A stretch of 64,000 bases of DNA, taken from NCBI RefSeq assembly GCF_057098645.1, contig NZ_JBXSPU010000002.1. One strand, written 5' to 3'. The position numbers are program-made. Positions 30,901 to 36,900 of this stretch are shown here, one piece after another. Within the stretch, counting starts at the first letter, position 1. Each line of letters opens with the position of its first letter. Source of the DNA: a plasmid.

Positions 30901-33900
30901 TTTCTGAAATGATCTTGTAAAGATTATCTATGTTATTTAAACAAACTATGATACAGTTTTTATCTTTAAAAAGAGTTAATGGAATGGATAGTATTAAATT
31001 ACTTGATAAAGTTATTATCTATCAACAACAGAATGAGCAATTATATCCAGCACAGGCGTTGTTCGTTCATATGATGATAAATACGATTTTAACGCCAGCA
31101 CTCACCGTGGCATCATCGGAGAGTCGCTCACAAGGCTCGGGGCGATGTTTTCTGGTAAAGAGTACCAGATACTGCTTCCTGGTGAAATTCACATTAAAGA
31201 AAGTGGTAAGCGATAATATAAGGGCCGGGATTCCGGCCTTTTTATGCAGCCTTTATAACAGTGTATTAGTCATTCGCATATTCAACATATCCCTCCTCAC
31301 AATTGTATATGCCATAATACATTCTCTTACCCTCCGGGCCTTCAGCTTTAAATGGGACAAGAAGTGTTTTTTCATCTTCAACATCTGTTAAACTTCTCTC
31401 AATCTTTTCCCATGTAATTTTCGGGATTTCTGTACCAAGAAGTTGAACATCGTTGTCCCAGCGTTTCATTCTTTGCAGGTAATCATTTTTTACAAACGTT
31501 CTGGCCTGTTCATCGCTGACCTGATAGCATGCCGGACCTTTATCTTCAGACCAGAAAAAAACAGCAGCAAGAGCAATAATCGTTAAAATAAAAATAAATT
31601 TCATGCTAATTACTTTCATAAAATCTCCACAACTTCTGTCGTTCATTCGATATAAAAAACATTACGAATATATCCGTACAATGTGAGCATACTGTGAAGT
31701 GGCTTTAACAATTATGAAATAATACAATAGATCACATATTGCAGTGGTCTCTTTTTTATAGAAGAAATCACAATTCATAATTGTGACTTATTATGCATGT
31801 TTGTTTTTCAGCATTGTGAACCGCCCCGGAAATCCTGGAGACTAAACTCCCTGAGAAAGAGGTAAACAGGATGACTAAAAATACTCGTTTTTCCCCCGAA
31901 GTCCGTCAGCGGGCGATTCGTATGGTTCTGGAAAGTCAGGATGAATATGACTCACAGTGGGCGGCAATTTGTTCCATTGCCCCAAAGATTGGCTGTACGC
32001 CGGAGACTCTGCGTGTCTGGGTTCGCCAGCATGAGCGGGATACCGGGAGTGGTGATGGTGGACTCACCACCGCTGAACGTCAGCGTCTGAAAGAGCTGGA
32101 ACGTGAAAATCGTGAACTGCGCCGCAGTAACGATATCCTTCGCCAGGCTTCCGCTTATTTTGCGAAGGCGGAGTTCGACCGCCTCTGGAAAAAATGATGC
32201 CACTGCTGGATAAGCTGCGTGAGCAGTACGGGGTCGGACCGCTATGCAGCGAACTGCATATTGCCCCGTCAACGTATTACCATTGTCAGCAACAGCGACA
32301 TCATCCGGATAAACGCAGTGCCCGTGCGCAGCACGATGACTGGCTGAAGAAAGAGATACAGCGCGTATACGATGAAAATCACCAGGTATACGGTGTGCGT
32401 AAAGTCTGGCGTCAGTTGTTACGGGAAGGTATCAGAGTGGCCAGATGCACTGTGGCACGTCTCATGGCAGTTATGGGACTTGCCGGTGTTCTCCGGGGTA
32501 AAAAGGTCCGTACGACCATCAGCCGGAAAGCCGTTGCCGCAGGCGACCGCGTAAACCGTCAGTTCGTGGCAGAACGACCTGACCAGCTGTGGGTGGCTGA
32601 TTTTACTTACGTCAGCACATGGCAGGGCTTCGTCTATGTGGCGTTCATCATTGATGTGTTTGCCGGATACATCGTGGGGTGGCGGGTCTCATCGTCCATG
32701 GAAACGACATTCGTGCTGGATGCACTGGAGCAGGCGTTGTGGGCCCGTCGGCCGTCCGGCACAGTCCATCACAGTGATAAAGGTTCTCAGTATGTATCAC
32801 TGGCCTATACGGAGCGACTAAAAGAAGCAAAACTGCTGGCATCAACAGGGAGTACAGGTGACTCGTATGACAACGCGATGGCGGAGAGCATCAATGGTCT
32901 TTACAAAGCGGAGGTAATACACCGTAAGAGCTGGAAAAACCGTGCAGAAGTGGAACTGGCCACACTCACGTGGGTGGACTGGTATAACAATCGACGATTG
33001 CTGGGAAGGCTGGGTCATATCCCTCCGGCAGAAGCAGAAAAAGCTTATTATGCTTCCATCGGAAATAATGATCTGGCAGCCTGAGTTCACAGATAAAATA
33101 CTCTCCAGGAAACCCGGGGCGGTTCACCCCTAATTCAACTAATTGGAGGCATTACCATGCATTAGTGCAAGCGCCTTGTGGATTCTTTTGCTAATGACGG
33201 AAACATATTGTACAATATTGCATTTATCCCTCAATAAATAAATGAGTTATCAGATTGCAAAAATCTGTTATCAAACTAATTCAAATAAAAAGAGATTGAT
33301 ACGACCAACGTACACAAAAATTTTCGATATTCGAACTAAATAACAGCTCCTAATACCGCTACACTTTAGCTATCCAGTCTGCGCCTCAGAAATGGACGAT
33401 GCCGTTGAAGGACTGGTGTATGGCAATGAGCCGCTTTATTATCGAATTCGGTGACCGCCTGGACGGTCACTTCGGAGAAAAGGCATTTACACAGCATCCT
33501 AAACAGGTTCAGCATAGGTGATATACCGCCTTTTCATTTTCTTCTCCATTATTTATAAGGGAGGTGTATTATTATGCAATATTATTGGTTTTACCCATTG
33601 TTTTTTTCAGTTCATGAATGTTTGCAAAAAAAATAAATGAACAACAATTTTATGTATTTAAAATAAATTAATTTTACTTCTGTAATGGTGTCATGATTAG
33701 CAGCTTTTTAAACTAATATCGACTTTCAATAAATAAGGACAGGTAATGGACAACAAAAATATCTGAACCCGGGTGAGATTCATAAGTTGCACAGTGCTGT
33801 CTTTAAAGTGCCACACCCGGAACGTAATCACTGCCTGCTCCTTATGGGGTATCTTCATGGTGTCCAAGCATCAGAGTTATTAGGTATAAAACTGTCTGAT

Positions 33901-36900
33901 ATTGATTTGCAGGCCGGTAACCTGAATATCCGGCGGCTCTAAACGGTTTGTCAACTCAGCCCCTCGGCTGAAACAGGAGGTACAGTCCATTCGTCGCTGG
34001 CTGAAACTTCGGGATGAATGGGTAGAAGAGGGATATGAATGGTTATTTAACCTCTATGGCAGGTCTGCTACAGGTATTACTGTTGTTCTGGGGGGGCACT
34101 GGTGTGGTTAATATCTACGATGCAAGAGATTCTCACGATGGCCCGGTCCATCAGTGCATGCGGCGCGATATTGTGCGAGTATTTTTCAGGGGGAGTGGTA
34201 TCCGGATGCAGAAAATTCCGCTACTCGACTGGTTTTATGCAATAAATCAGTATGATAATCTTCTGATTTTTTACTGAGGCGGATATCTCTCGCTGTGTTT
34301 ACTGAAATTGCGGTATTCTGTTTTTTCTGAAAAACAGAAAATCTGATTAAAAAGAGCATATGCGTTAAGGGAAATTTAAGTTCTGGTTGATTAACTGATA
34401 AAAATATTAAAAAATCCCTGTTGTCGGTAATCTCCGGACCATTCCGGGATTACACAATAATATCACCATGTGTGATATCTATGGATCCTCACTGTTGTTT
34501 ACGCGAGGATATTTTCAGAATGCTTAACAGACGATAATTTTTTATGTTGAATGCAAGGCATCTTCCCGTACTGATGTATCATCATGTCAGTCGTTGTCCG
34601 GGGCTTGTGACACTCTCACCTGAAACATTTTGTGAACAGATGAAGTGGCTCGCAGATAATAACTGGCGGACGGTAACATCTGCTGAGCTTGAATATTTTT
34701 ATCAGGGGGGAACGCTTCCACGAAAGAGTGTCATGCTCACATTCGATGATGGTTATCTTGATAACTGGCTCAGAGCATGGCCGGTCCTGAAGGAATATAA
34801 CCTTCATGCACATATTTTTCTCATTACGGGGCTGATTGGTAAGGGAAACGTACGTAGCAGGCAGGAGCAGGAATATTCTCACCGCGACTGTGAACGGTTG
34901 ATTGCCGATAACCGTTCAGATGAGGTCATGCTTCGCTGGTCTGAAGTCCGGGAAATGCGTGATTCCGGACTGGTTGAATTTCATGTGCACACCCATTCAC
35001 ATAAACGCTGGGACAGGTTGTCTGTATCACGTGCTGAACAGTGCCGGCTCATGAAAGAAGATATTCTGGTGGGAAAACAATGTCTGACGGAAAAGCTGGG
35101 GTTCTGTAGTTCCCATCTGTGCTGGCCTGAAGGATATTATAATCGGGATTATATTAATCTCGCCGGTAAGCTTGGTTTCTCTTATTTATATACAACCGAA
35201 AGAAGAATGAACTGTCCTGAAAATGGTTCATTACGCATAGGGCGTATCAGCACCAAAGAGCGGGAACATTCCGGCTGGCTGAAACGACGCCTTTTTTATT
35301 ATACAACGCCACTTTTTTCTTCAGTACTGGCTCTTCATAAGGGGCCAAGATTACCAGATAATTAATGATGAAAATTTTATTCACTGAATCTTCGTCAGAT
35401 ATTGGGGGCCAGGAGCTGCAGGCACTGGCCCAGATGACTGCTCTTCAAAAGCAGGGACATTCCGTTTTACTTGCCTGCAGGGAAAAAAGTAAAATTGCTC
35501 CGGAAGCCAGAAAAAGAGGGCATGATGTCACTTTTATCCCTTTCAGGAACAGCCTTCACCTTCCTTCCATCCTCAGACTTCGACGGATTATCGGGGAATT
35601 TAAACCTGATCTGGTCATCTGCCATAGTGGCCATGACAGTAATATAGCAGGACTGAGCCGTCTGATATGCTGTCACCGCTTCAGTATTGTCAGACAAAAA
35701 ACCTACATCACCCGTAAGACCCGAACGTTTTCCCTGAATTATCTGTGTGATTTCATTGTTGTGCCTAGCTCAGCCATGATGGCGCATCTGATGGCGGAAG
35801 GTGTCAGGACACCGGTAACGGTTATTCCACCGGGTTTCGACTGGCCCGCATTGCATAATGAAGCCATGCGACCGTTACCCCTGCATATCCACGCCTGGGC
35901 TGCATCAGCAGACAATGTTCCGCTTATCGTTCAGGTGGGGATGCTACGTCCCGAAAAAGGACATGAATTTATGCTGCGTGTATTGTATCAGCTGAAGATG
36001 GAAGGGAAATCATTTCGCTGGCTCGTGGTGGGCGCCGGGCGTGAAGAATACGAAGCACGTCTGCGTCAGCAGACAGAACACCTGGGAATGAGCGGAGATG
36101 TGTTAATGGCAGGTGCCCTTTTCCCAGCGTTACCGGTCTACCGGATTGCCAGTGTGGTGGTCATGCCTTCGGAAAATGAAGCGTTTGGTATGGTACTGGC
36201 TGAAGCGTCAGTCTCTGGCGTGCCCGTTATCGCCAGTGAGACGGGCGGGATCCCTGATGTCATTCAGAAGAATGTGACAGGGACGCTGTTACCCGTGGGG
36301 GATGTGTCTGCATGGACCGGCGCACTGCGCGATTTTTTATCCCGACCGGAACGCTTCCGGATGATGGCAGCCAGCGCCAGAGAAGATATTGAGTGCCGGT
36401 TTGATATTAACAGAACGGCACAGATCATTGTGTCTCTGGCTAGTCAGGCTAAGGGGAAATGTAACAGATAACGGCGGATCCTCTTTTCAGCCCGAATTTT
36501 GTTCAGCGGTTTTCCGGTAACGGAGTAATTTATCACATTGTTTAAATACGGGGACGGTCAATGCATTTAAATACCGGACAGAACAGGCCTACTTTCAGCT
36601 GGAGTGCGCTGGGATGGGCAATTTTTTATTTTGGCTTTTTTTCCACTCTCCTGCAGGTCATCATCTTCAGCAGTGGGTACAGCGGAACGAATGGAATACG
36701 GGACTCACTGTTATTCAGTTGTCTGTGGTTGATCCCGGTGTTTCTCTATCCTGATCGGATAAAAATAATTGCAGCTGTTGTCGGTTTCATTCTCTGGGGC
36801 ACGTCGCTGGCAGCACTTTGTTATTATTTTCTCTATGGTCATGAATTCTCTCAAAGTGTTCTTTTCGTTATGTTTGAAACGAATGCCAGAGAGGCTGGTG

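Follow-up and report, generated by a model that had tools for sequence, protein, structure and literature searches.

A decayed FimB/FimE-family invertase gene fragment upstream of the ecf operon on EHEC virulence plasmids

In the window, which is the whole 64-kb stretch of plasmid DNA that we analyzed, positions 33746-34047 of the plus strand correspond to codons 1-102 of a 186-codon tyrosine DNA invertase gene of the FimB/FimE family, here termed invA. We are confident that this locus is a non-functional pseudogene fragment, left as the scar of a phase-variation recombinase locus. The feature has already been annotated in part; what is new is confined to the origin of the pO157 ecf locus, to which the fragment bears witness.

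Lesions and conservation of the invA remnant

To the left of the remnant, a 3'-terminal fragment (~139 bp) of an IS1414-like element of the IS256 family occupies 33372-33510 on the plus strand. It is 94% identical in megablast to genes annotated as 'IS256-like element IS1414 family transposase' and comprises, in the alignment to L024, the last ~105 nt of the transposase coding sequence and ~34 nt past it. The end of this fragment abuts and truncates a divergent partner gene, invB, of which the first 10 codons (MKRRYITYAE; 33508-33537, minus strand) are left while the remainder is lost; residues 1-10 of the intact protein matched 33537-33508 with 90% identity in tblastn. Consistently, blastn homology to the chromosomal locus L010, where invB spans 9218-9778 on the minus strand, begins at 33509, which equals L010 9750. 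The spacer between the divergent genes, the former promoter region of the pair (33538-33745), is collinear with L010 9779-10000 and L021 846-1067 (81% identity, 20 gap columns). It is followed by the remnant itself, which shows 83% blastn identity to L010 10001-10305, a deletion junction at 34048-34049, an intergenic region (34050-34543, plus strand), and ecf1, the first gene of the ecf operon, which encodes a polysaccharide deacetylase (34544-35365, plus strand; from the ORF list and the annotation of homologous plasmids).

The invA start codon is the ATG at 33746, and the reading frame is lost after codon 2. Codon-level alignment revealed three 1-bp deletions, located after 33749, after 33939, and near 33960/33961 (codons 2, 66, and 73), of which the second creates a TAA at 33940-33942. 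An earlier note on this DNA had described a frame that stops after about 60 codons and continues in other frames, and this stop and the two other frames are indeed present. The first catalytic arginine, Arg-41 in the closest intact relative P0001, is replaced by glutamine (CAA, 33865-33867), which lies opposite the arginine of the XerD motif GLRVSEL; it was for placing this residue that the PDB search was of use. With regard to the catalytic R-H-R-Y tetrad, the remnant thus carries Gln at Arg-I and lacks the region with H-x-x-R and Tyr (codons 103-186), and an uninterrupted ORF of about 186-200 codons is replaced by one with three deletions, a TAA, and an end at codon 102. The 3' half of invA is found nowhere in the 64-kb window: for the missing half, tblastn with both intact invertases (E up to 10) gave nothing but noise. 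Since the catalytic half is lost and frameshifts, a stop, and the Arg-to-Gln change are present, a recombinase product is no longer possible. At first, second, and third codon positions, respectively, 5.9, 10.0, and 17.6% of sites differ between the remnant and the intact gene, against 2.4-3.3, 0.7-3.3, and 6.3-10.0% in the ecf genes, which we count as support for a probably relaxed constraint on the remnant.

Of 5426 complete E. coli genomes, 530 carry the stretch, always on plasmids, and positions 33500-34540 of the window are 98.6-99.8% identical to plasmids of the pO157 family. In pO157 of strains PA20, TW14359, and others, the stub occupies the equivalent position, and all ten EHEC plasmids aligned, from O157, O103, O111-type, and other backgrounds, have in common the stop codon, the three frameshifts, and the junction. 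RefSeq lists 33808-33942 under WP_001364580.1, a product of 44 aa called either 'site-specific integrase' or 'hypothetical protein'; the coding sequences of 44-80 codons that bear these two names here are pieces of one pseudogene and of intergenic DNA. A tblastn search of 72,556 PLSDB plasmids with P0001 gave no match above 90% identity, so that none of them carries a close intact homologue, and it did not recover an intermediate form. The best intact plasmid matches, at 60% identity or less, are other members of the family (Salmonella invertases, FimX, FimB).

In 526 records, all of them plasmids, the stretch is conserved at 99% identity or more, and one might ask whether the stub is kept for a residual function, either in cis, with the old invA promoter in 33538-33745 reading through into ecf1, or as a peptide of 44-65 codons. 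Terminator-like hairpins between 33746 and ecf1 are weak only, and some records contain an in-frame variant of 65 aa (P0002), both of which would fit such a role. We nevertheless consider it very unlikely. The conservation is fully explained by recent common plasmid ancestry, as the flanking junk at 33126-33371 is equally conserved; a consensus scan of 33450-34600 found no sigma-70-like promoter on the plus strand; and a short peptide would be devoid of any catalytic residues. Furthermore, such a stub is absent from the homologous ecf-like operons of other plasmids (L016, L017); in E. albertii pEA4_88 and in pCFSAN083828_2, similarity to the window starts only at 34364 and 34301, respectively, and there is none to an invertase. 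The literature cited in PMC2811833 places the ecf promoter region, with a curved-DNA element, in the native spacer. The functional weight of the pseudogene fragment is small: the stub has neither recombinase capacity nor a target switch left.

Assignment to the DNA invertases

When the whole window was searched with P0001, tblastn returned the invA remnant with an E value of 1e-37. As the closest intact relative, P0001 shows 82% amino-acid identity over 94% of the query. At the DNA level, 33509-34047, a span that also takes in the start of invB and the spacer between the two genes, is 83% identical to L010 9750-10305 (E 7e-166). The similarity to the intact invertase is significant and collinear from the start codon onward, as expected of common descent. 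The frame-repaired translation of 102 aa matched Pfam PF00589 with 42.3 bits (cut-off 27.1; profile positions 2-96 of 172), and its best NCBIfam matches were NF007370, 'tyrosine-type DNA invertase' (E 3e-23, 82.4 bits; positions 9-108 of 200), and NF007371 (E 2.5e-20, 72.9 bits). The curated cut-off of NF007370 (221) is not reached by the remnant, though this model is its best match; P0001 (186 aa) passes it with 246.3 bits. The earlier note had proposed that a decayed gene resembling tyrosine recombinases lies between IS629 and the ecf operon, a view to be given up if no recombinase similarity were detected. Such similarity was detected, far beyond chance, so the proposal survives, with the DNA invertases as the best matches; the start had to be moved from 33770 to 33746, and the homology ends at 34047.

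The same note had seen in the gene a possible remnant of a multimer-resolution or integration system, and here the profiles point elsewhere. Resolution systems are common on large F-type plasmids, and a tyrosine recombinase fragment on such a plasmid could come from an XerC/XerD- or ResD-type system or from the integration system of a phage or island. There is also weak similarity to XerD and XerA in the PDB sequence search (E about 0.01; XerD 1a0p, E 0.0077). However, the XerD model TIGR02225 scored only 22.3 bits (cut-off 329.6) and XerC 18.9 bits (cut-off 335), so that the FimB/FimE invertase models score up to four times higher. Scoring against these XerD and XerC profiles did not yield the two-domain protein of about 300 aa, above the cut-off, that characterizes the XerC/XerD or ResD type: intact P0001 has no N-terminal core-binding domain, and its alignment with XerD is confined to the catalytic domain of the latter (residues 102-283). 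In the intact locus, its gene is one of a divergent pair that adjoins a segment flanked by 15-bp inverted repeats and an autotransporter gene, not a res, dif, or att site or a partition or replication module. Because of the invertase-model scores and this layout, we assign the gene to a phase-variation invertase system; the resolution or integration reading appears to be refuted in effect by profile scores and locus layout, and we give it hardly any credence.

The chromosomal island and the deletion

The intact arrangement was found in rare E. coli chromosomes, and the 3' half of invA in only one of the 5426 complete E. coli genomes. The island contains, in this order, the invertase pair, the inverted-repeat-flanked segment, the autotransporter, an inverse autotransporter (intimin/invasin-like), Wzz-like, DsbA-like, acetyltransferase, and SdiA-regulated-domain genes, and ecf1-4. 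In all, five genes separate the inverse autotransporter from ecf1-4. A porin gene is placed after ecf1-4 in the island layout. Five independent assemblies (L019, L020-L023) have both the invertase pair and ecf1-4 on a single island, with ~14 kb between them. Window positions 33509-34047 correspond to L021 817-1372 and 34050-39378 to L021 14807-20137, and likewise in L019, L020, L022, and L023. The window is thus collinear with both ends of the island and lacks the middle 13,434 bp (L021 1373-14806).

The earlier note had extended the recombinase gene to 34280, a claim that does not hold for 34048-34280. The region 34050-34543 represents native intergenic DNA of the island that is not derived from a recombinase: it shows 86.4% identity to L021 14807-15302, which separates the SdiA-regulated-domain gene from ecf1. 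It contains a poly-G tract and an 80-codon ORF (34035-34277), which is spurious. That the 3' half persists in 34048-34280, decayed past recognition in a full-length but eroded gene, is practically excluded. By eye, some residues of frame 3 ('VHQCMRR...GSGIR...') can be paired with 'THPHMLRH...GKGAD' at about the expected distances; against this, 34048-34280 aligned at the DNA level with the 3' half of invA scores just as shuffled sequences do on average (z = 0.01), its three forward frames have no Pfam match and no tblastn match at E up to 10, and the island spacer to which it is similar is non-coding and lies 13 kb from the invertase gene. Local alignments of 34048-34300 with the intact gene, the downstream gap, and the partner gene on both strands (300 shuffles each) all remained below a z of 1.4.

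These comparisons suggest the following course of events, the direction of which, from island to plasmid, we infer by parsimony. An ancestral island of ~21 kb would have carried a divergent pair of 186-aa FimB/FimE-type DNA invertases through to ecf1-4, and the pair may have operated an invertible promoter. In the lineage reaching the EHEC virulence plasmids, a 13.4-kb deletion would then have fused codon 102 of invA to a point behind the SdiA-regulated-domain gene, 81 bp past its stop in strain no107 (L019). This deletion would have removed the catalytic half of invA, the putative switch, and all surface-protein genes, while the ecf promoter region and operon stayed. An IS1414-like insertion would have stripped invB to 10 codons, and the surviving 5' half of invA would subsequently have gained the three frameshifts, the stop, and the exchange at the first active-site residue. 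The reverse, a chromosomal island built by a 13.4-kb insertion into a plasmid-like arrangement, is implausible, as the insert would need a perfectly in-frame invertase 3' half. Positions 34050-39378 are 94.6% identical to the chromosomal island compared to only 83% for the remnant; judged from these sequences, the histories of the two parts could differ beyond neutral decay, for example through another ancestral invertase allele.

The candidate switch of the intact island is bounded by perfect 15-bp inverted repeats (L010 10568-10582 and 10796-10810) with 213 nt between them. A single orientation was seen in all seven loci compared (L010-L015, L018), with no inversion among them. In the window, the corresponding segment falls inside the 13.4-kb deletion, and no inversion polymorphism was present in 482 plasmid records whose match to 33500-34540 is a single collinear block. 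We also considered, and rejected, that the intergenic region of the invertase pair is itself inverted in some variants of the island; L010 and L019 are not alike in this region, but a minus-strand match was not obtained.

As a historical marker, the stub suggests an origin of the ecf operon of EHEC virulence plasmids in a larger island, still intact in rare E. coli chromosomes, and that the deletion and the IS1414 event date from before the spread of these plasmids among O157, O103, O111, O145, and other serogroups. The ecf lipid-A/LPS-modification operon of pO157 might be viewed as the captured tail of a chromosomal, probably phase-variable surface-remodelling island, with the stub as its left-hand scar. 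The most far-reaching version of this idea, in which the old invertase promoter still feeds ecf or the invertible switch of the intact island governs both adhesins and LPS modification, seems improbable to us.

Comparison with known phase-variation systems

The 5' half preserved in the remnant aligns from residue 1 of the FimB/FimE/FimX/IpbA family of roughly 190-aa single-domain recombinases. In tblastn, the identity of P0001 is 58.7% with FimX and about 55% with FimB; at the DNA level, the catalytic core of its gene shows about 75-77% identity with ipbA and fimE. In contrast to FimB/FimE, the copy in the window has no fimbrial operon nearby.

By layout, the island resembles ipuA/ipuB-ipuS-upaE, a phase switch of uropathogenic E. 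coli CFT073 with a 260-bp ipuS element and inverted repeats of 7 bp (PMC6083910). The island likewise has two adjacent FimB/FimE-like invertase genes, and its inverted-repeat-bounded segment starts at the 3' end of one of them, with the autotransporter directly downstream. It differs in its longer repeats (15 bp), in the 213 nt between them, which compare to the 260 bp of ipuS, and in that no LuxR-type regulator gene lies between the candidate switch and the autotransporter; in the window itself, unlike the ipu locus, switch and autotransporter are deleted. The ecf (ecf1-4/msbB2) operon locus of pO157, finally, is the same locus as that of the window and agrees with it throughout.

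Identity of the recombinase-like remnant

From left to right around the feature, the window carries IS629, an IS3-family element (ORFs 31871-33084), filler sequence, a recombinase-like stub (33746-34047, plus strand) and ecf1 (start 34544). In a three-frame translation, the ATG at 33746 opens 'MDNKNI*', and one base back from this frame 'KYLNPGEIHKLHSAVFKVPHPERNHCLLLMGYLHGVQASELLGIKLSDIDLQAGNLNIRRL*' runs on to end at a TAA at 33940-33942; beyond this TAA, 'NGLSTQPL' and 'RLKQEVQSIRRWLKLRDEWVEEGYEWLF' are read in two other frames. The frame-repaired translation of 102 amino acids matched Pfam family PF00589 (Phage_integrase) with 42.3 bits (E 9e-11; cut-off 27.1 bits). 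This match spans positions 2-96 of the 172-position profile, corresponding to the first half of the catalytic domain. The top two NCBIfam matches were NF007370 (82.4 bits, E 3e-23) and NF007371 (72.9 bits), both of which are FimB/FimE-type 'tyrosine-type DNA invertase' subfamilies. These are favoured over XerD (22.3 bits) and XerC (18.9 bits), and the suggestion of the earlier note that the feature might be left over from a multimer-resolution or integration system is not supported. In a search of 5.8 billion proteins, we found a single close intact relative, P0001 (186 amino acids), which is 82% identical to the repaired translation over 94% of the query. Named tyrosine-type DNA invertase in its sources, P0001 scores 246.3 with NF007370, above the cut-off of 221, and shares 58.7% identity with FimX and about 55% with FimB.

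Comparison of the window by blastn with L010, the chromosomal locus of CP117575 encoding P0001, gave one alignment of 83% identity (33509-34047 to L010 9750-10305, E 7e-166). In L010, it comprises the first 10 codons of invB (gene 9218-9778, minus strand), which encodes a divergently transcribed invertase of 186 amino acids, the intergenic region of 222 bp, and codons 1-102 of the P0001 gene, invA (10001-10561). The matching pieces of the window are invB codons 1-10 (33537-33508, minus strand; 90% by tblastn), the divergent intergenic region (33538-33745), and invA codons 1-102 (33746-34047). No part of invA codons 103-186 is retained, and tblastn with both intact invertases yielded no further match across the 64 kb. 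The truncation of invB after codon 10 is explained by an IS1414-like (IS256-family) terminal fragment on the plus strand (33372-33510, the last ~139 bp), which ends at 33510. An ORF at 33399-33521 encodes the C-terminus of its transposase, while the rest of the IS is absent here. The ~240 bp between the right end of IS629 and this fragment (33129-33371) are matched only by pO157-family plasmids.

Codon-level alignment of the stub to the intact gene showed single-base deletions in codons 2, 66 and 73, the second of which creates the TAA. In addition, the window has Gln (CAA, 33865-33867) in place of Arg-41 of the 'HGFRASE' motif. On alignment with XerD, this site faces the Arg of 'GLRVSEL', and it is the first residue of the R-H-R-Y active site of tyrosine recombinases. 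At the first, second and third codon positions (~101 of each), the stub has 6, 10 and 18 differences from the intact gene, respectively; the corresponding values for the ecf genes are 2.4-3.3%, 0.7-3.3% and 6.3-10.0%. The raised first- and second-position change in the stub fits relaxed constraint. Identity in the non-coding parts is 81-86%, and the stub thus shows the divergence of non-coding sequence. We see no plausible present function for it. Overall, the feature is a real but dead and truncated gene of the FimB/FimE invertase family.

Extent, distribution and annotation of the stub

The earlier note had described a decayed recombinase-like gene at 33770-34280, whose frame stops after about 60 codons and continues in other frames. 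This description holds up to 34047; the remaining half of the interval is unrelated intergenic DNA. Alignment of 34048-34300 to the 3' half of the intact gene scored at the shuffle mean (z = 0.01), comparisons with the downstream gap, invB and the reverse strand all gave z < 1.4, and the three forward-frame translations had no Pfam match at E up to 10. In a sensitive search of 5,426 complete E. coli genomes, this segment turned up in ~530 plasmids and in one chromosome, that of strain no107 (86% identity). An 80-codon ORF on the plus strand (34035-34277), which some RefSeq records list as a hypothetical protein (WP_001014904.1 or WP_001014903.1), starts inside the stub and crosses the deletion junction into intergenic DNA, where it takes in a poly-G tract of variable length. 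This ORF lacks a Pfam match and is almost certainly spurious. The tract (34091-34097, G7 in the window) belongs to the spacer preceding the ecf operon, ~450 bp before ecf1. Its length spans a 6-base range among ten aligned plasmids (+4 to -2 Gs relative to the window), and in the chromosomal island the run is interrupted (GGTGGG); the variation could reflect real slippage or homopolymer sequencing error.

The 601-bp stretch 33700-34300 is present in 530 of the 5,426 genomes, always on plasmids (526 records at ≥99% identity), and 497 plasmids match in PLSDB. The TAA, the junction and all three frameshifts recur in each of the ten aligned plasmids, which come from varied backgrounds and include pO157 PA20, one O103 plasmid and one named pO45. 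Apart from the poly-G tract, they differ by one extra T (pO45), two single-base deletions (CP027764) and five scattered base substitutions. Some database entries contain a 65-residue version starting MDNKKYLNPGE (P0002, 32 member sequences). Such a start implies A6 in place of the A5 run at 33754-33758 (codons 3-5), which restores the ATG frame to the TAA. Hence, the first frameshift either is polymorphic or is affected by sequencing error; even so, this version yields a product cut short at codon 65. RefSeq annotates 33808-33942 as the 44-residue WP_001364580.1 ('hypothetical protein', in newer records 'site-specific integrase'), and one GenBank record names a 59-codon ORF 'tyrosine-type recombinase/integrase'. 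Thus, the recombinase nature of the stub is already public annotation, and the sole new element is its reconstructed origin, and hence that of the plasmid ecf locus.

A chromosomal island as the putative source

Only one of the 5,426 complete E. coli genomes, no107, has the intact invertase pair. Its island (L019 1-23000, positions 68000-91000 of the chromosome) begins with genes annotated as substrate-binding protein, invB (minus), invA (plus), autotransporter and inverse autotransporter (~1,700 amino acids), followed by Wzz-like, thioredoxin/DsbA-like, small hypothetical protein, serine acetyltransferase and SdiA-regulated-domain protein genes. A 575-bp spacer then leads to ecf1-4 (polysaccharide deacetylase, GT4 glycosyltransferase, CptA and LpxM) and an OmpC-like porin. 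This rare island of ~21 kb, which occurs in 1 of the 5,426 complete genomes, has the same gene order in four more assemblies (L020-L023). Window 33509-34047 corresponds to L021 817-1372 (82.8% identity) and window 34050-39378 to L021 14807-20137 (94.6%), and both island ends are likewise matched in no107. The 13,434 bp between the two island ends are absent from the window. These matches suggest that the stub, and with it the plasmid ecf locus, would have arisen by a 13.4-kb deletion from the chromosomal island. In no107, the SdiA-regulated-domain gene ends 81 bp before the right breakpoint, and the window therefore keeps 494 bp of the 575-bp native spacer upstream of ecf. At the breakpoints, 'TCAT' is found in each of the ancestral-type flanks and could be microhomology, although the plasmid junction reads 'TTTAAC'.

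Operons resembling ecf, ~91% identical to the window, also occur in two other plasmids, E. albertii pEA4_88 and E. coli pCFSAN083828_2. One follows a prolyl oligopeptidase gene and the other a fatty-acid-synthesis-like cluster, and the upstream sequence shared with the window begins only at 34364 (pEA4_88) and 34301 (pCFSAN083828_2).

A putative ancestral switch

In the intact island, a perfect 15-bp inverted repeat (L010 10568-10582 and 10796-10810) encloses 213 bp, starting 7 bp past the invA stop and upstream of the autotransporter gene (product of 803 amino acids). L010 10554-10824 is a candidate invertible switch between invertase A and the autotransporter, as is the equivalent segment of L011-L015 and L018. 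All seven loci compared (L010-L015, L018) carry the segment one way round, and a second orientation was not seen among them. In E. coli CFT073, the experimentally characterised ipuA/ipuB-ipuS-upaE locus contains a 260-bp invertible promoter element, ipuS, which controls an autotransporter and adjoins two FimB/FimE-like recombinase genes (PMC6083910). The layout of the intact island, with its invertases, inverted-repeat segment and autotransporter, parallels that of ipuA/ipuB-ipuS-upaE (PMC6083910).
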